Part shown: in pieces, positions 4,395 to 39,937 of the stretch
Layout of the letters: each line of letters begins with the position of its first letter
Numbering within the stretch: position 1 is the first letter of the stretch
Assembly (NCBI GenBank): GCA_000934665.2
Contig: KZ538849.1
Span: 1 to 44,951, forward strand
Length of the DNA stretch: 44,951 nt
Direction of reading: 5' to 3'
Origin: Catajapyx aquilonaris
Taxonomy: Eukaryota
Position numbers and translations under genes: made by a program
The notes under the pieces: generated by a model
What the model was told of the DNA's origin: nothing
What the model saw: the letters and a program-made list of their open reading frames with translations, nothing else
Database searches by the model: none

Positions 4395-4705
4395 GAGCCT
4401 TTTTTGGGGGGTGGCACACCACCATCAGTTTTCTAGTAACTATGTACTATTTTTTCTTCGCTCACCAGTGCAAGGAGACAGGGACATGGGTAAGGATAGG
4501 GATTTTTGAGGAGGGAACATGTGGTGCAAGTGTAAGGCCTGTAAAGGGGTCTTGTGCTGTTCCCCAGGAGGTTAGGTCGCCAGACAACTCCAAGATTCAG
4601 GTCAGAGACCCTCCTGATGCAGGTACTCCCCAGGCGGGGATCGAACCTGGGGCCTTTCACTCAGCAAGTCGAGACGTTACCATCTCGGCCATCTACACCT
4701 CCCCC
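4395..4705 (-). mobile_element. tRNA-derived SINE family 2
   Basis: Homologous to the 13805-14157 and 18343-18694 copies; B box ggttcgatccc on the minus strand. Confidence 0.85.
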
Positions 4706-13611: not shown

Positions 13612-16600
13612 ATGTTGATTAGCATTATGAGTCATTTTTTGTTTGTAATACTTAGAAAACTTATGAATGATGATGTCGATGTGGAAATATAGGCATATTT
13701 TTTACTTTCCTTGTCTGAGGGTGGGGTTGAAACTGGGTGTCCCCTAGGAGGGACACTCGGCAAATGCACCACATGTGGACCGGCAAGTCAAGTACTGGTA
13801 CTCTTTTTTTTTTTTTTTTTTTACGTCACCCCGTGCTAGGGCCATGGGTCCTTATAGGGGGGTGGGATACCACCATTTTCTTCAATTTTCTATTTTTTCT
13901 TCTTCACTCCGGTGCAAGGATGAAAGGACATGGGGAAGGGATAGGGGATTTTTGGGGAGGGAACATGGGTGCAAGGTGCACGTCTGAAAACGGGTCATGT
14001 TCTGTTCCCCAGGAGGTTAGGTTGCCAGACACCTCCTTGGTGCAGGTCAGAGACCCTCCCGACGCAGGTGAAAGGAAAGTTCCCCAGGCGGGGATCGAAC
14101 CTGGGGCCTTTCACACAGCAAGCCGTGACGTTACCATCACGGCCACCACACCTCCCCAAGTACTGGTACTCTATAGGCTACTGTATGTGTGCGGATTTTG
14201 TGCGTTTTGTCGAACTGAATTTTTATGAATCCCTATTTTTAAAATGAGGGTTACCCGGCAACCATCGTAGCTATGGTAACCCACTGCCATGTACAATCAA
14301 ACATACATGCATACAAACTTTCGATTTTGGATCCAGTGAAACCTGTGTATAGCAGAATAGCACGGTGCCCTAAAAATCGTAATTGACAAGTTTCCGCTAA
14401 AAATTACGATTTTCCTAGTCATCAGCACCAAACGGGTAAGAGTGGAAGTGAACGCTGCAACGCCGCAAAGCATTGTGGGCAGAGGTGGTAGAGAGTGGGG
14501 AGAGAAAAAAAGTGGTGCTGTTTTTGCGGATCGCGCGCGAACCATTTAGCGATGTCGGATATATAAGGCCTAGTACGGTATATCAGCCGTTTCCGCTATA
14601 TTCGACACTGTATTTACGTCCTATGCATATGCCCGTTCCCGGAAAAATTCCGCAATGAACAAGTTTTTGTAACACTCGTCAGGGTAGGCTACGTTATGGA
14701 CAGGTTTCTCTACATATTTATCTAAAGTGAATCCTGTCCATAACGGACCCTGAACATAACGGAAACTTGCCTATTGCGGAATTTTTCTGGTAACCGGCGC
14801 ATGGAAAGTACACGATTTCCGCGTCGAATATAGCGGAAACTTGCTCATTACAGAAAATTTTATCATCCCGTGCATTTCCGCCATGCGCAGATTTCACTGA
14901 TATAGCTAGATGGGAAGTAAAACCTGTCTATAAGGGACCTTGTATATAACGGAAACTTGTTCATTGCGGAATATTCGAGTCCCGTGCATTTCCACTATGC
15001 ACAGGTAGTTTCACTGAATATAGCTAGATGGGAAGTAAAACCTGTCCACAACAGACCCTGTGGATAACGAAAACTTGCCTATTGCGGATTTTGTCTGGTA
15101 ACTGGCGTATGGAACATACACGATTTCCGTGTCGAATATAGCGGAAATTGTGTAATTTTCATACACCAGTTACCAGAAAAATTTCGCAATAGGCAAGTTT
15201 CCATTATACACAGGGTCTGTTGTGGACAGGTTTCACTGTATATTTATATACAGCGAAACCTGTACATATCTGAATAGCACGTGACTCTAAAATTCCGCAA
15301 TGAACACGTTTCTGTTATACCCTCCTGAGACCAGAGAAGCCATTTGTGCAATTATTTAGTAATACTTTGGAAGAACCCTCTGTAGTGGAGGTGTAGAAGC
15401 CATTTTTCAGAATTTCATATTTTTGTTGCAATCACTTATCGCAAAATTAGATGATTGTCCTATATATAGGACATTGGGTCTTAGCTATAACATTCCTTCT
15501 CTATATTTTTCAATGAATTTTTAAAAAACTTTTATCTTTATTTCAATACAGCAGTCTATATCTTACGTTTTCCTTGTACAGTATAGGGCTCCATACTAGA
15601 TGTTACATTTGCCGGGTGTCCCCTATAGGGGACGGCCCTTTTCTTACAATCTAGCATTCTATCATTTTTTAAATAATTTTTGTTGTGTTTTGGGGACTAT
15701 TATGAACTAATAAAAACAAACAAAAAACAAAATTTAAACAAAAAATCTTTCAGGTATATCTGGGTTAATTATAACAGGTTTGTCCACTAACATGTGCATG
15801 CATTAGCACTACAAATGTATTAACTTACATAACATCACAACTGGTTAGGGGGTCCAAAAAACTTGGCCCAATTCACATGAAAAATGCTTCATGTTCAAGT
15901 AATATTAATAAGGCTTGCCTATAAATGGCTCTGGTACGTTTTAAATGTGCAGCACTTACTTTTTTCCAACGCTTCCCAGTTTCAATCTGCTTCATGCTTA
16001 ATGTCATTAGTTGGAAAAGGAATCCAATTTCTACAGGTTCCAGCTTCTCTTCATTTTCTCTATCCTCCAAGAGTAAGGTAGTCATGGTTTTCCAATCAGT
16101 TACCAAATCATGTACTCCTAGTAGTGACTCCACAATTACATCAAGGTATGTAACCAACTACAAAAAAAAGTTGCATAAGTTTTTCAAACTATTACTGATG
16201 ATTACCGTAATAAACTATTTTAAATCATGCCAAACTAGTTCCAATCCTTGCATCCTTAGCATCAGAAAGGACAAGGATCATGTATTGGCTACTGGTAATG
16301 CCTTGGGTAATGCTCACCTTTCTTGAAATGATGTAATACACAAAATGTCTTAGAATCATAGTATTTGATGGTTTCTTCTTCCGTTTGCCTCGAGAGACTT
16401 TCACTTTACAATCTTTCACCAGCTCATCCATGAAGAACTTTCCTGCTGTTGTGAATATGTCCCTCTTACTAGAGCACACCAAGAGGAGCAGACCACTCTC
16501 CCGAAAATTGTCAATGCTTAGATTGTGACAACCACATCTGTAACAGAAGTATGTTACACTAGATAGACACCACTCATTATTTTATCGTGATTTTTATATT

Positions 16601-17300: not shown

Positions 17301-20300
17301 GAGAGTCATCTTGACCAAACAGTGAAGTAAATGACCTGACTCAGAGGGATCTAACCAGCCTCAATAGAAAAGAGCCCTTGGAAGTCCTCATTAAGGTTAC
17401 ATATCCAAGCATTGGCATGTAAAGTAGAAATCTGGGGGAGTCTATAGATATAATTTTTTTTGGCCCAACCATGAATGATTGTAACTGCAATAGAAGGTTG
17501 TTGTAAATCGTCTTATGGATAGCAGCATTCATGAAATAGTTAGAGAAGGCTGTATTATCCTCCTGTAGGGGAGGCGGAGTGGTGCTGCGGTAACGTTTGC
17601 GCCCACAGATGTAAGGGCCCCGGGTTCGATCCCAAGCCCAGGCTTTCCCCCCTTCATCTCGTGCAGAGTTGGGTGTCTCTGGCTGCGTTTTGGGTGGGAC
17701 TCCTTGAGACTAACCACCCGGGGGAGTTCACAAAATGTACCATTACAGACATTGCATTTTGCACATTGCACATCCCCTCCCACTCATCCATGCCTGTGGG
17801 CCCGCCCGGGTGCTTCGCTAAAGGTCCATAGTGTTGCAGTCATGGTTCATGAACACATTTGCCTCAGCAAAATCTCCTCGCTTTCGATATCTTACCATCC
17901 TACAACTGAACAGAAGGGGGGCCTCAAGTGTTGGTTGTAAAAGCCAATTTGAATATTTTTCTTCACAAAAGAGAGAACCTTTTCAGGTTGGTAACATGGG
18001 ACAAAACTTGGACTCCACATTTCTGTCAGGAAACAAAAATGGCGTCAAAACATTGGGAACACATGGTTTCTCCACCTTCCTAAAAGTTCAGGGTGCAGCA
18101 GTCAACTTCAAAGTAGATTGTCATAAAATCTTCTTGGATTGAGGTGGTGTTATGATGTTAAGTTTATAGGGAAGAGGGGCACAATCAATATGGAGGTAGT
18201 TTTTACACCAACTGTCTATGTATGTTGAGACAGGAATTGAGAAAGAAGATGCTATGGCATTGATGTTTTCCAGAGGAACAGTGGCTGATGGCCTGCCAAG
18301 AATGAGGGTCATCTTCCAGACTCTCTCCAACTTCTCAGAATATTTAAAAAAATTATTTATTTATTTATTGTACCCCGTGATGACCCTTACGGGTTCTATA
18401 GGGGGGTGGTACACCACCATTTTTCCTCAATTTTCTAAGTTAACTTCACTCCGGTGCAGGGAATCAAGGAGATTGGGTAAGGATAGGGATTTTCCGGGAG
18501 GGGACAGTTCAATGTCTCAAGTTTGGGCCATATGCAGTCCTCCAGGAGGTTAGGTTGCCAGACACCTCCAAGGTGCAGGTCAGAAACCCTCCCGACGCAG
18601 GTGAAAGGAAACACNCCCCCAGGCAGGGATCGAACCTGATGGAACCTTTCACTCAGCAAGTCGAGAAGCTACCATCTCGGCCACCACACCTCCCTCCTTC
18701 TCAGAATAGTGCGGCCGATTTCTTCAGAGTTGAATATGATTGAGTATAATTCCCCAGTGTCTCTTTGTGGCTGTCCTTTGGCATAATAATAATAATGCTC
18801 TAGTCATGCGGCAAAGATATCATTAACACCCAACCTACACATAATGGTAAGATTACTGAAATAATATGTACTTATTAGCTGGTAGGCCTAAATTTTGTTA
18901 TGAGGCTCACCTGATACTGTACAAGGGCATGACATAAAATAATGGCAACACCTCTATTTACTAGTACATTCATGTGGAATATTATTGTCACAAAAAATAG
19001 CTTACGCACATTCCTTAAACATGATCCCTTCCCATATTCATTGCCTTTTGCACTGGGCAAGTGGGCATCTTCATCTGAAGAAGAGAGCATCCTAATATAT
19101 TTTGTGTGAAAATGTGCTCCTTGCAGGCATATCTTCTTTGCAAAGTGGCTGGCTGTATATGGCAATAATTCAGCATCACTTGCTCTCTGAAAACCTAGTG
19201 AACATTTCCAAGCATTGACATTTCTGTTTTTAACCATGTTGTTACTCTGTCTTGGTGAATATCTCTTTAGGGAGGACCTGCCTGATGATGTAACTTTACA
19301 ACGTTCCACAATAATATTGTATCCTAATGGAGTGAACTTGTGAATCTCTGCCCATCTCAAATTCCACACAATCTATTAATGACAGTAGACATAACAACTA
19401 CATCCAATGATTGTACAGCACAAAATGACTGTGTTGCCACTACTTTATATTTAACACTCCTAATAAAGAAGGTAACAAAAGAAAACAATACAGTGGGACC
19501 CACTTATTTGGACCACATCGGGGCCACGGCATTTTGGCCCAATAAAGCGGGGGTTCAATTAACCTGGGTTCTTGTGAAACAACGGGGAAAAAACGCAAAA
19601 GATTAGACTGCACTACCAGCATTAATCCTCAAAAATTATTGCACAACAGGTGAAGGTAAAATCAATGTATAAAAGTGACTGTGTCATGCAAGTGTCATGT
19701 AAATGCAAAGTACTGTACTGTACAGTAATTTTAGTGCTCACTCACTGTAAAAAATTGTCTAGTAACATCTGTCGGGTTCTTGTTTTTGACTTCAGGTTAA
19801 CAAAGTTCGTGCAGGTGTCGAGTGCAGTCACAGGACCACCGTCATTCCCTACTTGCATAAAAAATCGTCAGTAGTATAGCATTATAGCAACTAAACTGGT
19901 CCGACTAACTGGGGAAATCACCACCTATGCGGGGAAAAATTACATTTATGGGATTGATTTGATTCCAGCCCTGGTGATTTGGTCCAAAAATGCAGGGGGG
20001 GCCAATAAATTGGGCCACCGATAAAGCAGGTCGCACTGTATTATAATAAATATAACTGACACATGCTGCACAAACATCACCTGTAACATTTTGTGTACCA
20101 CCCCTGGATCGGAATCTGCTAGAAGGCATTCAACAAGACCGAACACTTCTGGCTTGGTAAACTTTGCAGGAAAAATCACTACCCATTCAGTCAATTCTTC
20201 TATAACTAGCTGGCGAATCTTCACGCTTGAATCCATGCAGCGCTTTGCGTACACATTGTCAAGCAACTTTGCAATAACGCTATCCAAGTTTTTCTCAAGA

Positions 20301-22182: not shown

Positions 22183-25100
22183 ATTATTATTATCATCATT
22201 AACCGAAGCAGGTTGGCATAGTGGATAAGGCGTCCGACTGCTAATCGGGAGGTCCTGGGTTCGAATCCCGGGGCCGGCAACTCTGACCGTGGTTTTCTGT
22301 GGTTTCCCACGGTCCTTCCAGGGAAATTCCGGAGTTGTTTCCGTAATTAACAGGCCACAGCCGCTTCCTTCCGTCCCTATCCCATCCCAAAAAGTGCAGT
22401 AAAATGAAAGCAAAGAGTTCCAGGCAAAAGAAAAACTTCCCCCCTAAAGAGCCGAAAAAGGCTGATAACGGGGTATGAATTGTTATTATCATCATTATCA
22501 TTATTGTTGTTGTTGTTGTTGTTGTTGATGTTGATGTTATTATTATTTATTAACGTAAATGGAAAAAGTAAGGTCGCGTAGAGGGATGCATACCTGCCAG
22601 GATATTTTATAACTTAGTTTGTGTTTGTCACTCATTGTCTCGGTAACTATGCTTCGGATACCCATGATTACTGATACTTAAAATGATCGCCTAGAACCCT
22701 TCTACCATCCCCCAAAGTCATGGTATGTTAAATTTCTGCACCCTGTATATGCTGCAGGCACCTGTAACTGCGGGGTTTTTTTTTTTTTTTTTTTTGGTGT
22801 GCAGGTCACATTATGGAATCAGAAGTTACCTGTTCACCCCATGTGAAGGTAATAATAATTAATAATTCATACCCCGTTATCAGCCATCGGCTCTTTAGGG
22901 GGGAAGTTTGTTTTGCCTGGAACTATTAGCTTTTCATTTTACTGTGCTCTTTGGGGTAGGATAGGAAAGGAAGGAAGTGGCTGTGGCCTATTAATTACGG
23001 AAGCAACTCCAGAATTTTCCTGAAGGACCGTGGGAAACCACAGAAAACCACGGTCAGAGTTGCCGGCCCCGGGATTTGATCCCAGGACCTCCCGATTAGG
23101 AGTCGGACACCATATTCCCTCCTCCAAACTGCTTCGGTCCACGCCATGTGAAGGTCTAATACACTGCATTATTTTAGGACAGCTTAATTTTTTGTATACT
23201 TTTTCTCGCCAATACACTTATTTTTCATTCCACTCAAAGATTAATCTCAGGCATTTGTTCTAAATGCAGTATTAGGAATTTTTCATTTTACAACACTGGA
23301 TACATTTTAAAAATTGGCATATAAAATATCTTCAGCATATCTGATTTATGGCAACCAAGTCTGTGTAAAATAAATGACACTGTATCTGTCCCATTCGAAT
23401 CTTCCCTATTTGAGTGTCATTTCATTACACAGCCAAAATTTTGCTTCTTGAGTGATTTCCAACAAATGCAAGAAGATTCACCTTTTTACTCACAATGCGT
23501 TTATCCCATTCTTACATGAGAAACTGAATGAGGCAATAAATTCTTTTGCAACCTATTTATTGTCAAGTGAAATAATGTGAGGCAATAGAACCACCAACTG
23601 ATGGGCACAATTACTCCACTCTGATGTATTGTAGAAAATTATAATTCCACCAAAAGAATTTCAAAATGAAAATGCCAAAATGTACTAAACTGTACAAGTC
23701 CCTTTCTATTAAAAATTAGTACAGTAAAATGGATATATCATCTATGAAGTGTACTTTAATAGATCCCAGTGAGACAAGTTCATTTCAAAAAGCAATTTTC
23801 TTCTCCATGTTTTTCCTGAACACACCTGTCTCCCATTTTAATCATGTGCTCACAAGCAAGGAGACAGGAAGCAGTACAATCAGAATCACCCCAGAACACC
23901 TACATGTAGAGATATTCAGCTGGGAGAGATGAATCAGTATTCATCATGATGCCACCTTCCCCTGCAATTCATTTTAAACTCGAAAATATTGCTTGCACAT
24001 GAGAATAGCTGAGCCACTGATGCCAAATTGTATGTTTGTCTTTGCCACTTCAGGTGTGTAATTTTAATCCCCATAAAAAAAATATTTCAAGTGTCCATAA
24101 CTGACATATTCAAACTGTTGGGCATGATATTTGAAGGCACAAAAAACTAGGTGCTCACAAGATCTCATAAAATAATAGAACAGCCCCATTTTGCATCCTG
24201 GCATACGATATACAAGTGATATCATAACCTGCACTCTAAAATTGTTGGCATTATCTGCATATCAACACTAGTAGACGCTGAAACAGCTTTGCCACAAAAT
24301 ATTTTGTTGGTGCTACAGAAATGTACCATACATGATATTACAAATTGAATAAGAAATATGGGATAGATGACCTGTTTCACTTGGAATGCCTAAGTAATTT
24401 TCACATCCCCTGGTAACACCATGTGAAGTAATACCTGGTAAAACTCAGAAAAGAACTTTCTTGATAGTGTCTCAGGGTGCTCATCACGCTTCATGCCAAC
24501 AGCTACTTTAGCGTCAAATCCAATCATGTGGATTACAAGTTGCATTAGTCTTAATGTAGACACATTCTTATCATGCTGGTACTTATCATACCAACACTGC
24601 ACAATCTCCTACAAAAAGGAAAACATATTATCGTAATGTAAAAAATGTCACACAAATTATAAAGTGGCAAATAAAAATTACTGCCTTGCCTCCATGTTTG
24701 CATTCCTTTGGGCCAATTTATACATGACACTACCATGATCGAGCAAAGGGAACTTCCTTTTTTTACATGGCTTCTTCATCTTATTATGAGGCTTTTTCTT
24801 GGGATCACTTCTTCGCTCACCATGATCCTGAATTTCATCTTTCTTGTCAGATATATTGTCAAGATCGCTTTCTGCCTCAGGGGGCATAATGTCTGGATCG
24901 CTTGTTGCGTCAGGGGTCATGTCTGGATACCTTATTGCTGCCTCAGGGGACATACTGTCTGGCAAGCTTATTGCTGCCTCAAGGGGCAATCTGTCTGGAT
25001 GGCTTGTTACATCAAAGGACACAGTGACTGGATGGCTTGCTGTCTCAAGGGACACACGGACTGGATCGCTTGTTGCCTCAGGGGACACACTGTCTGGAAA

Positions 25101-28100
25101 GCATTCTGACTCAGGATACATATTGTTGGGATAGCTTGTAGCCCAAGGAGACATAATGTCTGGATCGTTTGTTGCCTCAGGGGACACACGGACTGGATCG
25201 CTTGTTGCCTCAGGGGACACACTGGCTGGATCGCTTGATGCCTCAGGGGACACACTGTCCGGAAAGCTTTCTGACTCAGGATACATATTGTTGGGATAGC
25301 TTGTAGCCCAAGGAGACATAATGTCTGGATCGTTTGTTGCCTCAGGGGTCATGTCACCTGGATCGCTTGTTGCCTCAGGGGACACACTGACTGGATCGCT
25401 TGTTGCCTCAGGGGACACACTGACTGGATCGCTTGTTGCCTCAGGGGACACACTGACTGGATCGCTTGTGGCCTCAGGGGACATATTGTCTGGATCGCTT
25501 ATTGCTGGCTCTAAAGGCATACAGTCTGGATGGCTTGCTGCCTCAGCATACATACTGTGTGGATAGAATGGTGGTGCATCAGGGGACATAGTATGGGTAG
25601 CTTGTTGCTGCAGGGGATATATTGTCTGGGTTTCTTGTTGCCCCAGGGATGGCTGGATCGCTTGTTGCCCCACGGGATACACTGTCTGGATCGCTTGTTG
25701 CCCCACAAGATAAATTGGCTGGGTTGCTAGTTGCCACATAGGATACATTGTCTGGGTTGCTTGTTGCCCCATGGGATATATTGCCTGGATGGCTGGTTGC
25801 CCCAGGATATACATTGTTTGGATCACTGGTTGCCCCATGGGATACATTGTCTGAATCACTGGTTGCCCCAGGGGATACATTGTCTGAATCACTGGTTGCC
25901 CCAGGGGATACATTGTCTGGATCGCTGGTTGCCCCAGGATATACATTGTCTGGGTTGCTTGTTGCCCCAGGGGATACATACTGTCTGGATAGATTGTTGC
26001 CTCAAGGGGCATACTGGCTGGATGGCTTGTCACCTCATGGGACATTTCATCTGCTTCATGTGGTATTTCGCCATGACCACGTCGATTGACTCGGCGACCA
26101 CCTGATATGGGTAGTGATACACGCTTCCTCTTTTTGCCCACATTCTTTGTGATATCTGTTTTAAACATATCAAAATACAATAAAATGTTAATAATACTAT
26201 TACCTTCCAGTCTATTGCCAAGTTTCATGGGGAAACGATTTCTTTAGGCAAAGAAAATTAACTAGTTACCCCCAGATGAATATTGTACCCACAGTAATCT
26301 TATCACATTCCAAGACATATAGGGGCCATTTACACAGCATTGAGGAACTCGGATCCATATTCCACTATACCAGTCGTCCAATATTATATTTTGATTGCCA
26401 CTTTCTGACCACTGTATTGCCAATAACAGATTGTCGATAATCTGGTTTTATGTCAACATGGATGAATGCTGTTGGTTATGTTGCCATCTTTTTTGATGCC
26501 AACATTTATTCAATTTGATATTTTGTCACATAATCATATCTGGATTGGGAATAGTGGACCTGTTATGGTTCCTTGGTTCCATGTAAATGACATTGTATAT
26601 CTTGCAGGTAAAGGTGGGAATTGTTACAAATGTCCCTCATTATACTTGTAACTCCATGTTTCAAAATATTACCAAGGCAATAACTTACTGAGAGAGTCAT
26701 CTCTTGAGACCACAATAGTAACCGTCTCTCCTCTTACTCAGGCACACACCTGATTCCGGTTTATACTTCGTTGATTTCACAGCAGAGAAAATCACATATG
26801 GGTCATTCCATGTCAGTTCATCCAGCCATGTCACCCACCATCTCAGATTTTCTTGAAATTTTAACTGGGCAAACTGTGTACTGAGAAACTAATATCCTGA
26901 AAATTTTAGCCTCCTAGCTCTTATAGTTCTTGAGCTATGGCCAGGCAAATGAGGGTGCAAATGGCTACGGCAGAGTTGTGAAGGCACGACTTGTTTTTCA
27001 AAATATTTTATTGTGTGTTAACTAATTGGTGTAGAAAGTTGAAAATATTTGTACTTATGCACATAAACCTTCCGATTCCAAAAACGCTGTCAGATTTGTG
27101 CTGAGATCATATCTTCACACATTAATCAATAACATTATTTGTTGGCATGACCTTGAAACTTTCACAGCTCATTCCCAAAATGTGTATCCTCCAATTTTCA
27201 TGCAATTGCACCAAAAGAAAGGTCTTGAAGTCTACTTTCAGGAGGTGTAAAAATTTGTCTGTGTATTTTGGTTTTTCACCTTGATAATGGCACATTAACA
27301 CAAAGTTTCAATCAACAAGACTGTTCTCTTGACACACTCCTTCAGATTGCTATATAATTACTCCAGTATCTGGACATGATAATTTGAGTCTCATTCGTTG
27401 GCCTAAAGAGGACACAATTACATTTTACAGTGTCTATTTGGCAACACCCCACTTATACAAGTGGCAACACAGTTCCTAACTATAGCAGCACGGTGTGAAA
27501 CTGGCAACATGTTGGCAGGTGAATCACTCACTCTAGATCCAAAGTTCATCATTGTGCACCTGCACATTCAAAATGGCCAGTTCACATTGTTCAGTTGGCC
27601 TATTAGTGAATGATCCCTGCCATAAAACCAGTTATACCAGTGTTCTGGGGAAAAAAGTGTGTCAGAACTAAGCATGAGGAAAACCAGGAGAGTCTTGCAT
27701 TGCGAATTGGAGTACCAAAGAGCAATTTGGTCACCCTTTGCCTGCACCATGCAAGTGAACTCTTTTGTTGCATGTGTTTACGATCACCATTGGTATCTTG
27801 GGGTTGTGGATGAAATGGGAAAACATGACTTTGATGGTGATGTATATGTGAAATTTATGCATCCACATGGCCCAGCAAGATCCTACTATTGGCCAAATCC
27901 TGATGATAAGTGCTGGGTTCCAGTGCTATGTGTGGTAGGAATGCCTACTACTGCAACTGGAAGGCAATACCAACTGTCACGGGTGTCATCCAAGGACACT
28001 GAAGCTGCTTGGTGTAGTTTCACGAAAAAGGAAAGTGACTTATAACATGTAAGTTGAAATAAGTTTTGCTTTGGTGTTGTGTCTTTACAAAAATAATTAT

Positions 28101-31100
28101 ACCTACCTGGAAAATTTCATTTTTGAACACGCTTAAGTACACTTTTTCATGGTGCAGGCAAAAGGTGACCAAATTGCTCTTTGGTACTCCAATTCGCAAT
28201 GCAAGAATCTCCTGGTTTTCCTCACTTAGTTCTGACACACTTTTTTCCCCAACAACACTGGTATAACTGGTTTTATGGCAGGGATCATTCACTAATAGGC
28301 CAACTGAACAATGTGAACTGGCCATTTTGAATGTGCAGGTGCACAATGATGAACTTTGGATCTAGAGTTAGTGATTCACCTGCCCACATGTTGCCAGTTT
28401 CACACCATGCTGCTATAGATAGGAACTGTGTTGCCACTTGTATAAGTGGGGTGTTGCCAAATAGACACTGTAAAATGTAATTGTGTCCTCTTTAGGCCAA
28501 CGAATGAGACTCAAATTATCATGTCCAGATACTGGAGTAATTATATAGCAATCTGAAGGAGTGTGTCAAAGAACAGTCTTGTTGATTGACACTTTGTGTT
28601 AATGTACCATTATCAAGGTGAAAAACCAAAATACACAGACAAATTTTTACACCTCCTGAAAGTAGACTTCAAGACCTTTCTTTTGGTGCAATTTCATTAA
28701 AATTGGAGGATACACATTTTGGGAATGAGCTGTGAAAGTTTCAAGGTCATGCCAACAAATGTTATTGATTAATGTGTGAAGATATGATCTCAGCACAAAT
28801 CTGACAGCGTTTTTGGAATCGGAAGGTTTATGTGCATAAGTACAAATATTTTCAACTTTCTACACCAATTAGTTAACACACAATAAAATATTTTGAAAAA
28901 CAAGTCGTGCCTTCACAACTCTGCCGTAGCCATTTGCACCCTCATTTGCCTGGCCATAGCTCAAGAACTATAAGAGCTAGGAGGCTAAAATTTTCAGGAT
29001 ATCAGTTTCTCAGTACACAGTTTGCCCAGATAAAATTTCAAGAAAATCTGAGATGGTGGGTGACATGGCTGGATGAACTGACATGGAATGACCCATATTT
29101 CATTACACAGCCCACCAAATGAACAGTGTTCCTCATAATGTATATAACAGTATCTACCTCTAATAATGGTAAATTATTCCAAAAATTAAACTTAAAAATA
29201 AAATAATCATTGTTCAACCTGCTGTGACCATTAATATTGCATTAGTCCACAAATTCCATATTAGATACTACTTTTCATTTAAATTAGGCTACACCACTTA
29301 CAAAGACCAATGCAAAAAAAACACACACACACACACACTCACGTGATAAAGTGCTATCCTTGTGAGGGTCTGGCAAAAATAAAAATTTAAAACTAACCTA
29401 ACCTAACCTAACCTAACCTACAAAATACACACGAAATTTTGGTGACCTATTTTTTCACAGTAAAAAGGAGGTCTTGGCTTGATTTTCCGCCATCCTTGTG
29501 AGGACTGTATACATTATGAGGGCCTGAAAAAAGTCCTCGTAAGATTTTCGGTCCTCACAAGGATAGGAAACTTGCGAAAAATATCCTCACAAGGATAGCA
29601 ATGTCTGATCACACATACACACACCCATTAGCACAATATTATTCTAGGGGAATGTGTGATTGGGAACTAATATGGTCCTATATGCAGCCAGTTATCTGAT
29701 ACAGCTTATTGTTAGTTTGATTAACAGGTCACTCTAGGTCATTGACGTGTCTCAGGTCACTTTCAGAAAACAGACTCACTTGCACTATTGACACTGTTGA
29801 CCTTACTAACAGTCAGTACTATGTATTACAGGATAATGACAGTGTGTCGACTTTTTTAAAGCAAGTGGGAAACTAGAACAGATGACTTGTGAGTCACAGT
29901 AAAATAAATTGTGCCCTTTGCATCTAATAACAGATTGATCCTGACCATAATATAACGGGTCATCGAGCATTACTTATGTCCATTGCCATACACAATTTAA
30001 TTTACATATTTCAAGAGAGCTGGACAAAATAATGGATAAAAATCCAACGTTGTGATGATGAGCATTTACTTGACATCCACTGTACCCTGGACAATCAAAT
30101 CATTGACTGGTCATTCAAGTGTAACTGGGGAAAGCAACTAATCAATAAGCAACATTATTATATGGCTATCTGGCTGTAACAAAGAGCAGTTAAGTAACTG
30201 GGAGTGAAAGGGCGAGTGAGTGAAAGAGAGGTGTTAACTCTCTTTGTATCTGCTGCCTCCCACCACACAACAACGCCCCTTTGTTACTGGCATGGTACAC
30301 TGACTAGTCTTCCCCAACACAACAGCTGGACGACTGTCCAACTCCACTTGCCCAATGCCCCAACCCTGCTCACTTCCAACAATGCCAGCAATGCAAAGTG
30401 AGCGGCAATGAAACGCCTGCCACGCCAACAATACCCTTTCCCTGTTCGAATCCATGCAAGCCGGCACAACCAGACACGACCCTCCCTGGTGAGACCCTCC
30501 CCAGAGCCCAGACAAGGAACACGACCCTAATTCGCACTTACCTGCTGCTGGGGCTGTCTCAGAGGCGTTGAGGAAGGCCCTCGGGCCGCCCTGAACACAA
30601 TTTTCCCGTTTTTCTCACCGCAAAACCGCTCTAGAACACAGCCGAACAGGAGAGGGGATGATGAGGGAAAAGGGGGAGGGAAGGGGAGGGATGGCGTCCC
30701 AACCGACACGGCGGGCGGATGGATACGGTCGGAAGCGATCCCGCGCGAAATGAGATCTGCCCGCCCACTCCCGCCTTCTTCCCAATACAACACCCAACAA
30801 CTAGGCAACACTGATGCATACGTACGTGGGACATGGAGCCTGATCGTGCACCTGGACAATTACTGTACTGTGTATTTTATTCAGTGGAGGGAAAATACTG
30901 CGGGGGACTATATACCGCAGCGGAGGCGCCATTGATGGCTTGGGGCTCTTTTTCCATACAGATATTATGGGTACGACGCGACGTCTGCTATTTGCGGAAT
31001 GGACGCCGCCATTTTTAGTCAGGCGATTCGAATGATTCAAACGACGATGCCGGAAGAGCCTCAATAAATAAGCCTTAATGCCTTACACATATATTTAATA

Positions 31101-31537: not shown

Positions 31538-32894
31538 CTACAAGAGAGCATAAAATAACGTCAAGGCTCATGTTTGGTGCTGCAGTAGCCTACACAATAC
31601 GAACTTGATATGCGCACTCCTCGCATTTAAACACGGAGACACCTTCGAAATTGTATAGTCTATTCATACAGTATAGGCTAAGTCAGAGGCTAAGTATCTT
31701 CTCTCCGCCCCTGGGTTCGAACTATGTGTATTGTGTTGCTGGCTAGGTGGAAGCCTATGGTAGTGGGGACCACGTGTGTGGTTCCAGCATTTATCCTCTT
31801 TTGGAAATTGTCCCTGTTCTTGTGCGCCATCTGGTGGCTGTAATACTGTATAAAAGGAAGGGGGCTTCGGCCCTCAAGAGACTCTCTCTCCTGTATCACT
31901 CCAGCAATACACTGTTTTAACCTCCTACCGGTCTCTTATTCCCACACCCTGCGACCTAGGTAGGTCAGGGGTCAGGTCAAGGGTCCTGACATGGTGCTAA
32001 TCACTATACCACCGGAAAGCACTGGAATAATAAGTTGGACTTTATTTGTCAATAACCAATGGATATTAAATGCCTCAGCGGCCTCACTTAGATTAATGAG
32101 GATATATCAACTTTAAGCCAGTATTATTCCAAAAGGCCCATATACGATATACCGTATAAAAGGAATAAACAACTTGCCGAGTTGGTGCGGCCAAATATAG
32201 GCATCCGAACAGGCGCTGTTTCACCACAGCAGTAATGATTATATTTTTTGTATCAGTGAAAATATTGTGAAAATTCGTGTATCAAATCCTGAGCCCTTGA
32301 GTTGGACAGAAGAAGCAAAAACTCGCTCCTTGCACACACCCCTTACTTTCTTTACTCTCCCACACTTTTATCCTTTTTTCCCTCAACAGGACGGTGTGCA
32401 GCATGCAAAGCAGTAGCCGATACAAACGAAGGGCTTGGGAGAAGAACATGACGTGCTAAAAGTTCTCGGCTTGAATATTTTCGCGGAAAACAAATGAAGC
32501 ACAGGAGGTGTCCTCATGTGGGCAGGTGTGGAGTACCTTCATGAGTATTCGTGAATACTTTCTCGCCTGGCGCGCCTGAAGAGAAGAGAGCACCAGACGC
32601 TATCAGTCAGCCAGTGAGCCCATTGCCGCATCCCGGTTAACACGTTTTACTCCCAAGACGTTCAATTCGCGCCAAAGCTAGGCCTACCTATCGACGGAGC
32701 TGGAAGTCTCGCAGGACATTCTGGACTCCTCAAACGGTGACCCCGACCTCCTGAACAGTGAATACTCGCTGTGATGACTGGTGACGATGAGTCCTGGGTC
32801 GTACCCTGTTCAAGTCTTTCCGTCATTTTCGCGGAAATGAAAATTCAACGGGCGCCAATTACCCTCGGTCACTCACACGCTAACTGCCTGCGTT

Positions 32895-32995
32895 TTTCTC
32901 ATGACCCCAAGAGCTATGCCGGCGGTAGCTTCGTCTACTGGTAGGACCACCCAAGCCGGACATCAGGTCTTTGGGATAGGAGACAGACTAAGAGA
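32895..32995 (+). mobile_element. RTE-like LINE 5' UTR remnant, interrupted by the LTR pair
   Basis: gagctatgccggcggtag...ctggtaggaccacccaagccggaca...cagactaagag resembles RTE 5' UTRs as I recall them. Confidence 0.4.
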
Positions 32996-32998
32996 TAT

Positions 32999-35463
32999 TG
33001 TAGTGTCCAGGCAACTGGCTGTTGATGGTTGCCTGGTCACTGCATTATTGATGTTGTTGACTTGTTGGGTAGTTCGATTCTGGCCGATCTCCTGATCGGA
33101 CGCTGTGTACTTGTTGTCCTGAATACAGTTCCAAACTGGTTCTTATACCCTTCCCCGTGTGTTATTCTGTGGTGTCTCTGACGTACTCATCGTGGGGCAC
33201 TACAAATTGGTGTCAGAGACTGGGATTGTGAAACCGCCGGATCGGACGTTGGAGAGGAAGATGTCATTTCTCGAAGAGCTCCGAGCCATCCTGGGGGAAG
33301 GTAGCTGTGGATCCAGCCAGGTGCACTGCAAAGAATTTGTGGAGGGACTGAGGCATAGGACGGAGGCCAGGGAGGAGAGAACTCCGGAGGACTACCACTC
33401 CGTAGAAAGTAGGTGGTGTGGAACCAGAGGGGGGCGATGCGATGACTTCCCAGAGTGGAGAAGAGACTGCCTGCCCGACGAGAGGGTGTCGATCATGCAG
33501 GAGGTCAAGGTGGCCTTGCATGAGGGCATGGCAGAGCTCCGGAGGGAGATGATTGCAGAGATGGTGCAGATGCAGTTGGCAGCGGAGGAGAAAGAACGGT
33601 GCCGCAATGAGGATCTTCAGGCGCAACTGAAGGAGTTGCGTGATGGCCTGGAGTTGGTGGCAAGGGAAGCTGCCAATGGACCTGCAGCGGCGCCGGAAGG
33701 GATCTCTCCATCCGCAAGTGATGGTTTTGGAATGCCATCGCCATCGCTGTCGCAACACTATGCAAGTCGGTCGGCGCCAACAATGGGGGGCCAAGTCACG
33801 TTGCCACGTGACGGCCAAGAGGAATCCTTGGCACCACTACAAACAAACCCGGTGGGGACCACAATTAAAAGCCAGGTGAAGTTGCCAGACAACGGTAGAC
33901 TGGATCTGCTGAGAGAGGACACTGGAACGTCCGGATGTGGACCAAAGCAAGACATCGCAGCGAAGATGGAGCTGCCGGTGTCAACCAGGAAGGAAAGCTG
34001 CACGTTCCCATCAGAGGGTAAAGAAGAGGCCTGGGTGCAAGGATGTTTGCATCACCTGTGGAGGATGGTGATGCTGATGGTGCTGGTGCTAGTAATGTGT
34101 TTGTCAAGATGTGTCAGAGAGCCAGGGTGCTGGAAGTCGCAAAGAAAAGCAGAGAGGGATGCTGCAGATAAAAGTGATGATGCGGCAGGGGTCATCATAT
34201 TGTTGGACAACTGGAGGGGCCGAAAGAGGGTGCAGACTGAAGAGGGCCAGACAGAGGGCGCCGTGGGGTTGCGCTATACCGTCAGGAGGCTGGAAGAGGA
34301 CACAGAGAGATGTGTCGAGGGATGCTGCAGTGGGCCAGGGGCGTCGCAGATCCTGGAGCCAGCGACGGGTGGTCTGGATGCCAGTAAGGATACCTGGAGG
34401 CCAAGGCAGAAAGGTCCAGAAGTAGAAGATACCAAGAGTTTGCTGTTGGCGAGTAATGAGAATGAAGAAGATGCCACTACTAAAGGGACCATCCCGGGGA
34501 GGGATGATTTGATGGACCAGGGTCACGTGGGGGCCGAGGAGAATCAGACTGAGGGCAGGTTGCTCCACACCGTCAGGGGGCTGGGAAAATGCAGAGATCC
34601 AGGCGGTCTGGAGGTCCTGGGGTCAGCGACTGGCAGTCTGGAAGCAGGCGAGTACATATGGAGGCCGAAGCAGAAGAGTCCTAAGAGACGTTCTCGTGGT
34701 AGAGGTGGTTTGCGAGACAAACATGTGAAGAGGAAGGCTAAAGTCCGGTGCAGGGAAAAGGGTGCCGAGTCTCTGCACCATCCAGTCGTGGGGCGAGAAG
34801 ATGATGGGGAGAACCTACTGGAGATGCACTGTGCCCACCAGGGACCAGGCTGATCAGAAGAGTCTGGAGGAAAAGCAGAAGGGCCCAGAGACTGGTGAGC
34901 AAGCAGATGCTGTGAAGAATGGCCCTCAAACAGATGCTGACCATGAGGAGATTGATGGACAAGCAGATGCTGAACTTGAGGAGCCGGATGGTCATCAAGC
35001 TGAGGCTGATCATGAGAGGTCTGGTGATCAGGCAGTTGCTGCTCTTGAGAAGACTGGTGGTCGTGCAGCAGCAGCAGCAATTATGGGAGACAAACTGCGA
35101 CTGGCTCAAGAGAGAAACTCCAGCTGGAGAGGGACAGATTTCAGCTGGCGGAACTGGAGGAAAAGAAGAAGAAAAAAAATGGCTGGAAGTGGAGAGTTGT
35201 TGGAACGAGATAGTTCTCGTTCCGTTTAAGGGGGGAAGATTGTAGTGACCTGGCAACTGGCTGGTGATGGTTGCCTGGTCACTGTTATTTATGTTGTTTA
35301 GGGAACCAGAGTTGTTGGGGTTTCCTATCAGTTCGATTCCTGCTGTCCTGTGAGACGGATGTGTTGATGTATTGTCCTGAATACAGTGCATTCTGGTAGT
35401 TACTTCTTCCCCCGTGTGTGATTATTTTGTGGTGTCCCTGTCGTCTAATCGAGGGGCACTACA
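32999..35463 (+). mobile_element. Non-autonomous Gypsy-like LTR element 1 (5' LTR type A, 3' LTR type B)
   Basis: LTR-A 32999-33204 (TGTAGTG...CACTACA), PBS tggtgtcagagactgggat, PPT aaggggggaaga, LTR-B 35241-35463; no RT, RNase H or integrase motifs seen. Confidence 0.9.
33261..34853 (+). CDS. Gag-like coiled-coil ORF with degenerate protease (DTG) remnant in LTR element 1
   Basis: ATG MSFLEELRAILG just after the PBS. A 7-nt near-duplication (caccagg gaccagg) shifts the frame; the ancestral frame continues to the PPT (ORF 34762-35229). Confidence 0.6.
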   Translation: MSFLEELRAILGEGSCGSSQVHCKEFVEGLRHRTEAREERTPEDYHSVESRWCGTRGGRCDDFPEWRRDCLPDERVSIMQEVKVALHEGMAELRREMIAEMVQMQLAAEEKERCRNEDLQAQLKELRDGLELVAREAANGPAAAPEGISPSASDGFGMPSPSLSQHYASRSAPTMGGQVTLPRDGQEESLAPLQTNPVGTTIKSQVKLPDNGRLDLLREDTGTSGCGPKQDIAAKMELPVSTRKESCTFPSEGKEEAWVQGCLHHLWRMVMLMVLVLVMCLSRCVREPGCWKSQRKAERDAADKSDDAAGVIILLDNWRGRKRVQTEEGQTEGAVGLRYTVRRLEEDTERCVEGCCSGPGASQILEPATGGLDASKDTWRPRQKGPEVEDTKSLLLASNENEEDATTKGTIPGRDDLMDQGHVGAEENQTEGRLLHTVRGLGKCRDPGGLEVLGSATGSLEAGEYIWRPKQKSPKRRSRGRGGLRDKHVKRKAKVRCREKGAESLHHPVVGREDDGENLLEMHCAHQGPG

Positions 35464-35487
35464 AATTTGTAGTGCCCCTCGATTAGT

Positions 35488-38032
35488 TGTAGTGTCCCAC
35501 GATGAGTACGTCAGAGACACCACAGAATAACACACGGGGAAGGGTATAAGAACCAGTTTGGAACTGTATTCAGGACAACAAGTACACAGCGTCCGATCAG
35601 GAGATCGGCCAGAATCGAACTACCCAACAAGTCAACAACATCAATAATGCAGTGACCATGCAACCATCAACAGCCAGTTGCCTGGACACTACATTCTTCC
35701 CCCCTTAGAAATGGAACGAGAACTATCTCGTTCCAACAATCCTCTTCCTCCAGCCTGGACCCCATTTTTTTTTCTTATTCCTTCTCCAGGTCCTCCAGAC
35801 TGGCCCTCTCCAGCTGGAGTTTCTTGGCTGGAGATGCTGCTGCTTCTCCACTTGTGAACTCTGCAGCTTCATCCTTGTCATCCTCTGCAACTTCCTTCAA
35901 GAGCTTCCCAAGGTCACATTCCGTTGTGTCGTCCCACAGCTCGCCTTCTGCGGGCTTCTCTGGGTCACCAGCATCTGCATGACTACTAGCATCACCACCA
36001 AATTCTCACGCTCAGCATCAGGTTGACCACCAGACTCCTCATGATCAACATCTGCATCTGCTTGCTCACCAGCATCTGCATGACTACCAGCATCCATCAC
36101 CACCAGACTACCCACGCTCAGCATCAGGTTGACCACCAGACTCTTCATGATCAACATCTGCATCTGCTTGCTCACCAGTCTCTGGGTCATTCTCGTCCTC
36201 CAGACTCTTCTCCTCAGCCTGGTGGGCACAGTGCTTCTCCAGTAGGATCTCCTCTCGAATCCCCCCAGCATCTTCTTCTTGCCCCCCAACTGGATGGTAC
36301 AACGCTTCGGCATCCTCTTCCCGGCACAGGACATTCGCCTTCCTCTTCTGTTTCGCAGTAGCCTCTTCATCTTCACCCTCATCAGCCTGCGTTGGCAACA
36401 GCAAAGTCTATTCTCGCCGTTTTCCAGATCTCTCGTCGCTGGCACCTGGACCTGCATGACATCTGGCTCTCTGCAGCATCTTGACGAATACATCACCAGC
36501 ACCATCAGCATCACCATCACCATCACCACAGGGGCGGCAAACATACCTCGCACCAGGGCCTCGTCTTTACCCTCTGACGGGAAAGTGCAGCTTTCTTTCC
36601 TGGTTGACACCGGCAGCTCCATCTTCGCTGCGATGTCCTCCTTGTCCTCACTCTTGGGCTCCCCAGCTTCACGCATTGGCTGCTCCGTCACTAGGTGCAG
36701 CATCCCCATGTCGCTCCTGGGCATCTCTTTGTCTGCAACGGTACAGCCTTCTTTCAGGCTCGGCATCGCCAGCTCCATCTCCGCCTCGATGTCCTGCCTG
36801 TTCACACCCCTGGTCTCTCCATAGTCACCTTCTGGCTGCTCCGTCTCTGGCTGCGATACAGTACCATCGCACCTGGGCCCCTCCTTGCCCTCCATCACGA
36901 CGATGCAGCTATGTAGCCTTTCTTCTCCAGCACGATTCCCCTGCAGCAAGTCCACCCCGAAAACGAATGGTAAACGTAATCCCGGGATGACCATGTCAGG
37001 AATCTTCCTGGGGTTTCCCATCTCTTCGAAACCCCTGCAGCTGGTCACTTCAACAGTAGAGGTCACCTTCCCCCCGCTGTCAACTCCTTCCCAGCCAGAC
37101 ATCGGCAGCTCCAACTCAGCAGCTCAGCTCTGTCTTGGCTGGCCCCACACTCGGACGTCCCAGTGTCCCATCTCGACAGCTCCCTTCTGCCGTTGTCTGG
37201 CAACGTCGACTCGCCGCTAATCATAAGCTTCTTCTGGTGTGTTTGCTCCGTCTCCAAGGCGCCTCCTTCGCCGTCGTGTGGCAACGTCCCCTTGTCCCTC
37301 ATTGTTGGCTCCACGGTTGGCTCCATTGGCTCTTTCCCGTTTGTTTGGAACACAGCAACTCTCGCAAACATCGCCTTCCTTGCTTCCAAGTACTTGCGCG
37401 ACAACTCGTCTTCCCAGGCCTGCAGCCCCTCGTCGTGGCTCTGACGATCAGCCATCTCGGCCATCTGCATCCGCATCACGAACTCGCCTCGCATATTTCT
37501 CCGGAGTTTCTCCTCCATGGATGCTCTTCCATCGGGCAGGTGGCCACCTCGCAACGCCTGGTATTCTCCAACTCGACCCCCGTTGCTTCCCTGCCACCTA
37601 CCCGGAGTTCTCTCCTCCCTGCTGGCCTCCATCCTGCGCCTCAGTGCTTCCACCAATACATCCTTCCAATGTACTTGGATGGCTCCACAGCTCTCTTCAG
37701 CTTTGCCGCACCTCTCTTCCCCAAGAATGGCTCTCAGCTGATCGAGGAATGCCATCTTCCTCGCAACTTCCGAACAGGCGGTTTCGTTATCCCACTTCTG
37801 ACACCAATTTGTAGTGCCCCTCGATTAGACGACAGGGACACCACAAAATAATCACACACGGGGGAAGAAGTAACTACCAGAATGCACTGTATTCAGGACA
37901 ATACATCAACACATCCGTCTCACAGGACAGCAGGAATCGAACTGATAGGAAACCCCAACAACTCTGGTTCCCTAAACAACATAAATAACAGTGACCAGGC
38001 AACCATCACCAGCCAGTTGCCAGGTCACTACA
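35488..38032 (-). mobile_element. Non-autonomous Gypsy-like LTR element 2 (5' LTR type B, 3' LTR type A)
   Basis: LTR-B reverse copy 37810-38032, PBS tggtgtcagaagtgggat (complementary to a tRNA-Leu 3' end ATCCCACTTCTGACACCA), PPT at 35694-35706, LTR-A reverse copy 35488-35693. Confidence 0.9.
35710..37755 (-). pseudogene. Frameshifted paralogous gag/protease-like ORF in LTR element 2
   Basis: MAFLDQLRAILG start homologous to element 1; WDTGTS and VIPGLRLPFVFGVDLL (protease-like); split across ORFs 37063-37755, 35897-37114 and 36108-36404. Confidence 0.6.
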
Positions 38033-39937
38033 ATATACCAGTCTTACCTCTCTTCTTTTTCCTCTTCGTTTCTCTCTCCATCTGTCCCACCTTTGAATAT
38101 ACTATAGCCAGATAGCCATAGTTGATTTGCTTGGCTTCTTCTCAATAAACCCAAACCCAAACCCTGACTGCCAGCGACTGACTCTCTCTGCAGGTGCGGA
38201 AATATTCATGAGTAGGCTACTCATGAAGGTACTCCCCACCAGAGGACACCTTCTGTGCTTCATTTGTTTCCGCAACTTTTTGCATTTCCCACTGGCGATT
38301 AACAGGTTTTTCGGTTTTTCTCCCGAGCCCTTCAAATGTAAGATTAGTTATGAAATACTTGCAACATAGGATGTGTCTAGTTATGATCGATCTAAGGCTG
38401 CGGTGGGCCCCCCAGAGCGCGAAGGGATGGCAGGGGATTGTTGTGTTAGGAGGGAGCTATTGAAAGACTCGACTAGGCTTTGGAATGTCATCTAACAAGT
38501 TTAATCAACAATGTCAATACACTACTATGAATACATAGTAACTATACAACTGCCATGGCCCCCAATCTCCTTTCTGTTTGCTGATACCAGTTGACAATCC
38601 CTAGATCCGAAACTCTGGAAAACATAACATTTTCATGGTCGAGGTCACCGGAACTTTTTAGCTCGATTTGGGTGCCAGACAATCGCGCCCTAGATAATGT
38701 GCTTTTACTGCATGTAGTAGGCATAATAATAAAATATTGTAAACCTGCGCCTAATTGAGAACTAAACTGGATGTACAGGGTGTCCCACAAGTCTGGACGA
38801 GACTAGACGAGACTGGACCCATAGGAGTTTCCTATTACATTGTTGTAGTATATGATTACTATTGTTACATAGTAACATTGTACAGTGTTTATTAGTAGCT
38901 ACTAGTAGCGGACCCGTTGCCAAATTTGGGCAACACTGCTTGGCCCACCCCCCACATGAAAGTAGTATAGGCCCCTACCAGTTGGCGCATAGGCTCTCCC
39001 TCTGCACACTACAGTATACTGCCGTGCTTACAGGGAAAGTATAATACTGCGTACTACATGCACATTGGTGTCATTTTCTTCATTAGGTGAGGAGCATCAG
39101 CCGAATAATTTGCTGCAGACCCATGGGCCCTGTGAGTGAGGGTTGCCATTTAATAATAAAATCCCCTTATGTCCAAGCATAGTTTTTCGTGTGTTTCTCA
39201 AAACTACCTCGATGTGACTTATGGGGTTTTTCCCGCCGACGTGACGCGACGCCTCTATTATTTTACAGGGGCACAGGTTTTTTACGTCATAATGAGCGTC
39301 ATTCACAAATTTCTTTATTGTTGAACACTCTAGTCTGGACACTGATGAAGTCCTCAGAGTGCATTGTATATGTCTTCCTCAATTTATACTCTTACATTTA
39401 GCCTCCTAGCAGCCTTGTGTGTGCAGAAGCCTCCTAGCAGCAGCAGTCTTGTAGTGTACACGTGGGAAGATTCAACCCACGTCACGTCATACCTAGCCAT
39501 TTTTTGAACCAACCTTACCTTACCTCCCCTCTCGTTGAGTTAATTGTACGAATTCAAGAAAATATATGGTTATGGAACATACTTTCGATCTAATATTTTA
39601 CTTCCCTCCTTACGACACCTTACAACACCCCTCTTCGCTTTTTTTTTATTTTAAAAAATCTAATATTTCAACTGATAGGCCTACTGGCATTTTAAATATT
39701 TTTAGAGTTACTTCGGCTTTAAAATGTGCAGCATATTGGGGGAAAAAACGCGAACAAAAACGCACCCCTCACTTTAATTCTCAGAATCGTATTATTTCAG
39801 AATGGAAGGGAAAAAAGCTGAATACGTCACCGAGTTAGCTATCTTGCCATGAGTTCTGAGTTGCATCTACAGCGTGATCTACAGGGAGTTACGGTAAAAA
39901 CACCGACTTTTGTCCTAAGAGCTAATGGACCACAGGA

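Follow-up and report, generated by a model that had tools for sequence, protein, structure and literature searches.

The window considered here is a 44,951-nucleotide stretch of the Catajapyx aquilonaris genome (assembly GCA_000934665.2, contig KZ538849.1, positions 1 to 44,951). It contains a 5,034-bp unit made of two non-autonomous Ty3/gypsy retrotransposons, inverted tail to tail, whose long terminal repeats (LTRs) are of two types, A and B, in a swapped arrangement. From left to right the order is LTR-A, internal region i1 and LTR-B on the forward strand, and then LTR-A, internal region i2 and LTR-B on the reverse strand. This order had been described in an initial annotation of the window, and its coordinates and strands for all four LTRs hold on re-alignment. 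The two outer ends of the unit are both exact ends of the unique 3' (U3) part of an LTR and match each other as inverted termini in 41 of 44 bp, and the two inner ends are both unique 5' (U5) ends with leftover spacer bases. The features of the locus are as follows.

32889-32994, no strand: host repeat, left part, split by the insertion; the whole repeat is about 270 bp, high-copy and interspersed
32995-32998, no strand: target-site duplication ATAT, left copy, from paralogue comparison
32999-33204, plus: LTR-A1, 206 bp, 5' LTR of element 1, with termini TGTAGTG...CACTACA; joined to the target on the left by its U3 end
33205-33226, plus: element 1 spacer AAT and variant tRNA-Leu primer-binding site (PBS), whose first 10 bases match the tRNA
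33205-35240, plus: internal region i1, 2,036 bp, without pol; frames 33123-34853 and 34729-35229
35228-35239, plus: element 1 polypurine tract, from sequence
35241-35463, plus: LTR-B1, 223 bp, 3' LTR of element 1, 223/223 identical to LTR-B2
35464-35487, no strand: central junction, 24 bases, consisting of AATT, a 19-nt fold-back (35468-35486) and T
35488-35693, minus: LTR-A2, 3' LTR of element 2, 204/206 identical to LTR-A1
35694-35706, minus: element 2 polypurine tract, from sequence
35694-37809, minus: internal region i2, 2,116 bp, without reverse transcriptase (RT), RNase H or integrase; frames 37063-37824 and 35897-37123
37789-37806, minus: element 2 PBS, 18/18 complementary to the 3' end of tRNA-Leu(CAG)
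37810-38032, minus: LTR-B2, 5' LTR of element 2; joined to the target on the right by its U3 end
38033-38036, no strand: target-site duplication ATAT, right copy, from paralogue comparison
38037-38170, no strand: host repeat, right part, from paralogue comparison

The LTRs within each half do not match. LTR-A1 and LTR-B1 are identical in 169 of 231 aligned columns (73%), which agrees with the clear divergence between a 206-bp and a 223-bp form that had been annotated. The counts given for the like copies were also correct: the A copies differ at two positions, both private to A2, and the B copies are identical, the next best B in the assembly reaching 96%. Both LTRs were in reach in 20 of the 47 junction rows examined, the two halves included. 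All 18 complete relatives have LTRs that are 86-100% identical, whereas those of the two halves are 72-73% identical, so that neither half has the matching LTRs that an element carries at insertion.

A 4-bp duplication accompanies 26 of 34 family insertions picked by hand from the listing of junction loci, and the other 8 show no match. At this locus the short, fixed-length duplication surrounds the pair and not each half: element 1 is flanked by ATAT and AATT and element 2 by ATAT and ACTA, so that neither has a duplication of its own, as had been noted. The matching ATAT alone is weak proof of one insertion because ATAT is the commonest family target (7 of the 26 duplications) and chance would give two independent insertions a shared 4-mer in about 10% of cases (256 of 2600 pairings). 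It was dropped as an argument, and a paralogue test was used instead. Both flanks of the unit are parts of one high-copy host repeat, of which 29 copies were fetched as the best-scoring of 686 candidates from a genome search. In all 29 a single 4-mer is all that separates the left flank from the right flank, as expected if the target duplication is single. The 4-mer is AGAT in 28 paralogues and GGAT in one, and in the window it is ATAT on both sides. Since this variant stands on either side of the unit, and host bases are neither missing nor retained within it, ATAT is a true target duplication. The paralogues show the unit to have entered one site with one 4-bp duplication.

Read contigs were available from four runs of one sample, which is probably the assembly's own source, and are short. 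Seven joints in them that link the two flanks were considered as the empty allele of the locus and rejected, having other letters and deriving from paralogous repeat copies. The read-contig depth of the host repeat, about 10,000, is not usable as a copy number. The repeat itself (32889-32998 and 38033-38170) is homogeneous, at 93-94% across its left part.

Relatives of the two halves were found by a pattern search of the genome, which gave 46 LTR-PBS junctions with the same termini. A spacer AAT between LTR and PBS is the family norm. The PBS of element 2 is complementary over its full 18 bases to the 3' end of the tRNA-Leu(CAG) encoded in the genome itself, a tRNA called by ARAGORN in two of the four loci fetched. 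Element 1 has a variant PBS with a 10-base tRNA match, and the identical variant occurs in the relative L020. With LTR ends of TG...CA, a tRNA-complementary PBS and a polypurine tract before the 3' LTR, the halves have the general build of Ty3/gypsy elements. The order of protease, RT, RNase H and integrase in pol is absent from them and is seen in autonomous relatives, complete in L101 and from RT on in L107, both of which share termini, PBS and duplication length with the halves. No recognizable enzyme is encoded by the unit: its three frames gave no Pfam match, and neither did four single long frames of relatives. The element 1 frame has weak similarity to the first open reading frame of L107 (E 2e-12), and the element 2 frame is 48% identical across 69 amino acids to the protease region of the L101 pol, and i2 holds a protease-like remnant. 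The weak frame similarity to L101 and L107 and the lack of pol in the halves identify both, as judged from sequence, as non-autonomous gypsy elements, for which L101, L107 or kin like them may have supplied the enzymes.

Less damaged copies of both internal regions exist. i1 is 95.4% identical to that of L001, an A-i1-A element, and i2 is 97.4% and 95.4% identical to those of the A-i2-A elements L002 and L006. L001 and L002 retain a single frame of about 680 codons that is broken in both halves. In the young non-autonomous relatives L001, L002, L043 and L048, a single frame of 670-845 codons runs up to the polypurine tract, with a gag-like start, a protease remnant in i2 and a long charged tail without a Pfam match. 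L001 (L001:320-2761, G000:C5926) has identical LTRs and mismatched flanks (GTAC and ATTG), from aberrant integration, recombination or a misjoin.

These relatives indicate which LTR was exchanged in element 2. Element 2 tracks L002 all the way from just past the PBS as far as its 3' LTR, with an A-type tail and an A-type LTR. A-type U5 followed by an i2-type start is found in L002, L006, L056 and L010, and B-type U5 followed by i2 is found at this locus only. The switch falls inside a 24-bp tract common to the U5 end and the PBS. The comparison thus shows element 2 to be an A-i2-A element whose 5' LTR was replaced by B, with the switch at the PBS. For element 1 the tail is informative. Its last 200 bp are 97% identical to the tails of L015 and L030, 91% to that of L001 and 84% to that of L002; the tail is not A-type, which argues that LTR-B belongs with the 3' end of element 1. 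An A-i1-A and a B parent might instead have exchanged ends by a reciprocal crossover 200 bp upstream of the 3' LTR; this idea was rejected, as the element 2 tail tracks L002 and not L001 or element 1.

The like LTRs share diagnostic alleles. A1 and A2 have C at LTR position 112, where seven of seven other close A LTRs have G, and B1 and B2 have A at position 8, against T in the 11 other aligned LTRs. These shared alleles show A1 and A2 to be derived from one template and B1 and B2 from another. The difference counts, 2 of 206 and 0 of 223, are compatible with one date (Fisher p 0.23), and the locus is among the youngest of its family. The annotation had proposed a genome search for A-A and B-B elements. 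A-A elements are present (L001, L002 and L006); a B-B element was not found among the best 40 of 83 candidates. The 24-mer at the B U5 end occurs six times in the assembly, twice in the window, once in L021 and in three solo LTRs. The read contigs hold the B-type LTR end (window 35463 or 37810) with another flank that is absent from the assembly, so another B copy exists in the sample.

Between the two halves lie the 24 bases at 35464-35487, which the initial annotation had left out of its description of the center. The four bases after B1, AATT, equal the family spacer plus the first PBS base, and the final T is the first spacer base of the U5 end of A2. The 19-nt segment in between (35468-35486) is an inverted copy of the LTR-B 3' end (U5). 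Together with the LTR end, AATT and this copy form a perfect 42-bp palindrome (35445-35486) centered on AA|TT, with a hairpin energy as DNA of -23 kcal/mol. There is no host DNA and no ATAT between the halves. The genome search gave the junction pattern at no other locus, except for one hit in a coding exon that is due to chance. The junction looks like two unprocessed cDNA right ends that were joined by repair. Fold-back duplications of 5-34 bp have been described at repaired breaks in yeast (PMC11724301, part of the text), and the 19-21-nt inverted templated copy beside the joint resembles them and lies within that range. Those breaks were induced, chromosomal and in yeast, and the part of the article available makes no mention of retrotransposon cDNA ends.

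Signs of exchange between A and B LTRs are found elsewhere in the family. A solo LTR, L012 (L012:2957-3178, G000:C7228), is a clean chimera with a B-type first half and an A-type second half; the switch lies in a shared 10-base tract, and several other LTRs of the family are mosaics with their switch at that mid-LTR place. The flanks of L012 are mismatched. L012 and the mosaics suggest that A and B RNAs meet during reverse transcription. L012 was also considered as a daughter of element 1, an idea that was rejected because it does not carry the position-8 allele of B1. Two other loci contain inverted LTR pairs. L021 (L021:3828-4334, G000:C9121) is a second pair with U3 ends outward and has no internal regions: an LTR-PBS and an inverted PBS-LTR are separated by a 13-base filler, and the LTRs are 94% alike. 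One half stops exactly at the 18th PBS base, the end of plus-strand strong-stop DNA, and the flanks are contiguous in the six paralogues aligned. L041 (L041:370-960, G000:C11073) is a head-to-head pair in which both LTRs lack their 5' part (the U3 starts). Two LTR types stand there on a near-identical internal start, one arm ends after about 290 internal bases at GTAC, and the outer ends lie outside its short contig. At L112 (L112:300-400, G000:C12133), a 33-bp unit of U5 end plus PBS is tandemly repeated after the LTR, as if plus-strand transfer had slipped repeatedly.

The account we favor, and to which we give somewhat better than even weight, is that one particle held two RNAs, that reciprocal cDNAs arose by intermolecular plus-strand transfer, and that the U3 ends were integrated and the U5 ends joined. 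A virus-like particle from an autonomous relative would have held an A-i2-A and a B-i1-B RNA; we infer both the co-packaging and the B-i1-B parent. Reverse transcription of each RNA would have given a minus strand carrying that RNA's own 3' LTR, and each plus-strand strong-stop DNA would then have jumped to the PBS of the other minus strand, giving A-i1-B and B-i2-A. Integrase could have paired the two left (U3) ends, with their 44-bp inverted match, as if they were the ends of one cDNA. In HIV (human immunodeficiency virus) the last tRNA base is kept at the unprocessed cDNA end. If the same applied here, an unprocessed right end would read LTR-AAT plus T, giving a self-complementary AATT, which may have folded back and primed the 19-nt copy, the A2 end having retained one spacer base. 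The two free U5 ends would have been joined by end-joining with this short fold-back insertion. They could have been joined before integration, as a linear dimer, or after it, by chromosome repair. The annotation had listed co-integration of cDNAs from two co-packaged RNAs as one of three interpretations, without the plus-strand transfer step that would account for the swap. It is the one that best fits the empty-site paralogues, the U3 outer ends, the U5 inner ends and the switch tract of element 2. Plus-strand transfer depends only on PBS pairing (PMC6088434, available in part), and discordant LTRs by intermolecular plus-strand transfer have been proposed for HIV-1 in the portion of PMC5651808 consulted.

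Several observations count against this account. PMC5651808 also states that in retroviruses in cell culture the second transfer is generally intramolecular. The B-i1-B parent was not found in the assembly, and there was no B-B element among the best 40 of 83 candidates or the six matches to the B U5 24-mer. A-type U5 joined to i1 also occurs in L001 and in L020, the latter with the variant PBS, so independent data do not fix the element 1 switch at the PBS. C at position 112 is present in the chimera L012 too and marks a lineage rather than this locus alone. The read contigs come from one sample and leave the LTR pairs unphased; among those listed there is no piece that spans the whole unit or is shown to bridge its center. 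The first A and last T of the junction would also fit a remodeled ATAT, and the duplication at L021 is imperfect.

The annotation's second interpretation, adjacent opposed elements followed by inversion, survives only as a double insertion at the very same site plus two more events, because there is no host DNA and no ATAT between the halves. In its current form, a normal A-i2-A and a normal B-i1-B element would have lain tail to tail, having arrived by two insertions or already joined as a dimer; crossing-over within the 24-bp U5/PBS tract would later have inverted the middle and so swapped the LTRs, and the palindromic center would then have been remodeled. We regard this as unlikely, although the geometry yields exactly the observed order, ATAT is a preferred target (7/26), the junction does start with A and end with T, and double insertion is known to give inverted LTR tandems (Rover, with ATATAT in the junction; available text of PMC5932611). 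The junction contains no ATAT, and B1 is followed by four bases that equal the family spacer and the first base of the PBS. Four exact matches between the halves (41, 27, 27 and 25 bp) are longer than the 24-bp tract, so recombination would have no reason to pick it, whereas intermolecular plus-strand transfer predicts a switch in this tract. Two or three separate events would also be needed at a locus that, with 2 differences in 429 LTR bases, is very young. Among the read contigs listed there is no strand-changing joint of the unswapped form, a weak point since contigs drop rare forms. The third interpretation, a composite mobilized as a unit through its outward U3 ends, is extremely improbable. 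The 41/44-bp terminal inverted match and the one duplication would suit it, but the central junction pattern is confined to this locus, so that neither a second copy nor another A-B/A-B composite, which the annotation had suggested looking for, was found in the genome, and no transposase or pol is present in the frames of the unit. A transcript from either outer LTR should end in the next LTR and give a chimeric single element and not a pair.

The assembly may instead be locally wrong. Across identical inverted repeats a flip isomer could have been assembled, the true order being A-i1-B-i2-A plus a lone inverted B, or a lone A plus inverted B-i2-A-i1-B. All isomers share the same short junctions, B1 and B2 are identical across 227 bp, the available runs are short contigs of one sample, and one of seven identical-LTR elements (L001) has mismatched flanks. 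The other six, with LTRs of up to 362 bp, were assembled with matching duplications, which implies that such repeats are usually resolved, and it appears that in no order but the assembled one are all four ends natural for a cDNA. We consider this quite unlikely and, to the same degree, the corollary that the locus is a known type of three-LTR element plus one extra LTR; in either isomer the U3-outward, single-site character is kept. A further alternative retains the integration and joining of our preferred account and derives both cDNAs from one RNA, a tandem A-i1-B-i2-A with two PBSs and two polypurine tracts, both primed. The missing B-i1-B parent and the existing A-i1 5' junctions would then be accounted for, and three-LTR elements with one duplication are known (PMC1950507, in part; bioRxiv 10.1101/452573). 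No such tandem is found among the 47 LTR-PBS junctions examined, a weak absence in a fragmented assembly, and B-type U5 followed by i2 exists only here; this single-RNA origin is, in our view, very unlikely. Replication template switching on an integrated three-LTR tandem was considered as well, and needs three switches, one within a base of an LTR end.

Compared with known systems, the locus behaves like a gypsy insertion built from two cDNAs. It shares the TG...CA LTRs, tRNA-Leu PBS, polypurine tract and 4-bp duplications of non-autonomous Ty3/gypsy LTR retrotransposons, but differs from ordinary Ty3/gypsy insertions in the 73%-identical LTRs of each half, the one shared duplication and the outward position of both U3 ends. 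A parallel for the swap is the HIV-1 discordant-LTR model (PMC5651808, in the part available), in which the 5' and 3' LTRs likewise come from different parents, the switch, as in element 2, is at the PBS, and a mid-LTR breakpoint arises in the next generation, like that of L012 here. That model was inferred from descendants and is drawn with one product per particle, whereas here both reciprocal products apparently lie side by side. In rice, 3 of 249 RIREX elements have different LTRs inside a duplication, which has been ascribed to exchange before integration (bioRxiv 10.1101/452573). The model offered for these "abnormal" swapped-LTR elements also predicts two reciprocal products, although the rice elements are single, each with its own duplication and no inverted pair.

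Three-LTR insertions by template switching (PMC1950507, available in part) have the same two bodies in one unit with one duplication. They are head-to-tail with a shared middle LTR and near-identical outer LTRs, whereas the present unit has four LTRs, is inverted and has outer LTRs that are 73% identical; thus, of the features of the Sabot and Schulman three-LTR type, the one duplication is seen and the head-to-tail order with a shared LTR is not. Double-insertion inverted tandems (PMC5932611, accessible part) provide the same tail-to-tail or head-to-head LTR pairs at one site, but they keep the target site in the junction, and here spacer bases and a fold-back are found, with swapped LTRs. 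The target site in the junction that characterizes the McGurk and Barbash double-insertion type is therefore lacking. Composite or fold-back DNA transposons would be expected in several copies or with a transposase; this is one locus without a Pfam match. Two inverted elements that have exchanged LTRs with each other and share a single duplication are not described in the full-text literature searched, which lies outside most subscription papers and supplements (inverted LTR tandems are listed in Table S2 of PMC5932611), and the accessible text of PMC11624286, PMC5668417, PMC6088434 and PMC3187697 holds background only and no matching case. We take the locus to be a rare retrotransposition accident, a one-off in a young non-autonomous Ty3/gypsy family and a variant of known accidents, and not a new element class.

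The usual view of retroviruses is that a particle gives rise to one provirus, and two-donor integration is known to us only from test-tube integrase assays. If our preferred account is true, the locus would be direct genomic evidence that a particle can finish two cDNAs, that plus-strand transfer can be intermolecular and that two-donor integration takes place in vivo. Its value would be that of a fossil in which a single reverse-transcription event has left both its products, a tetrad-like record, albeit at a single locus. More generally, and here we would put the chances somewhat short of even, a particle can finish both reciprocal cDNAs and integrase can pair the ends of two cDNAs in the germ line, with U3-to-U3 co-integration recurring (here and at L021, L041 being possibly a mirror case) and feeding the LTR shuffling of the family. 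There is also a practical side, as dating by LTR divergence would take these very young halves, whose LTRs are 27% apart, for ancient ones, and such units escape LTR finders.

Other repeats were observed in the window. A 2.3-kb fold-back element at 26790-29104 has arms that are about 98% complementary across about 950 bp. On the minus strand at 24678-26243 lies a 521-codon frame that consists mostly of a 33-bp (11-residue) tandem repeat and has no Pfam match. Two dispersed repeat families with tRNA-like motifs, at 12280, 17568, 21812 and 44523 and at 4488-4691, 13933-14145 and 18525-18683, are probably short interspersed nuclear elements.

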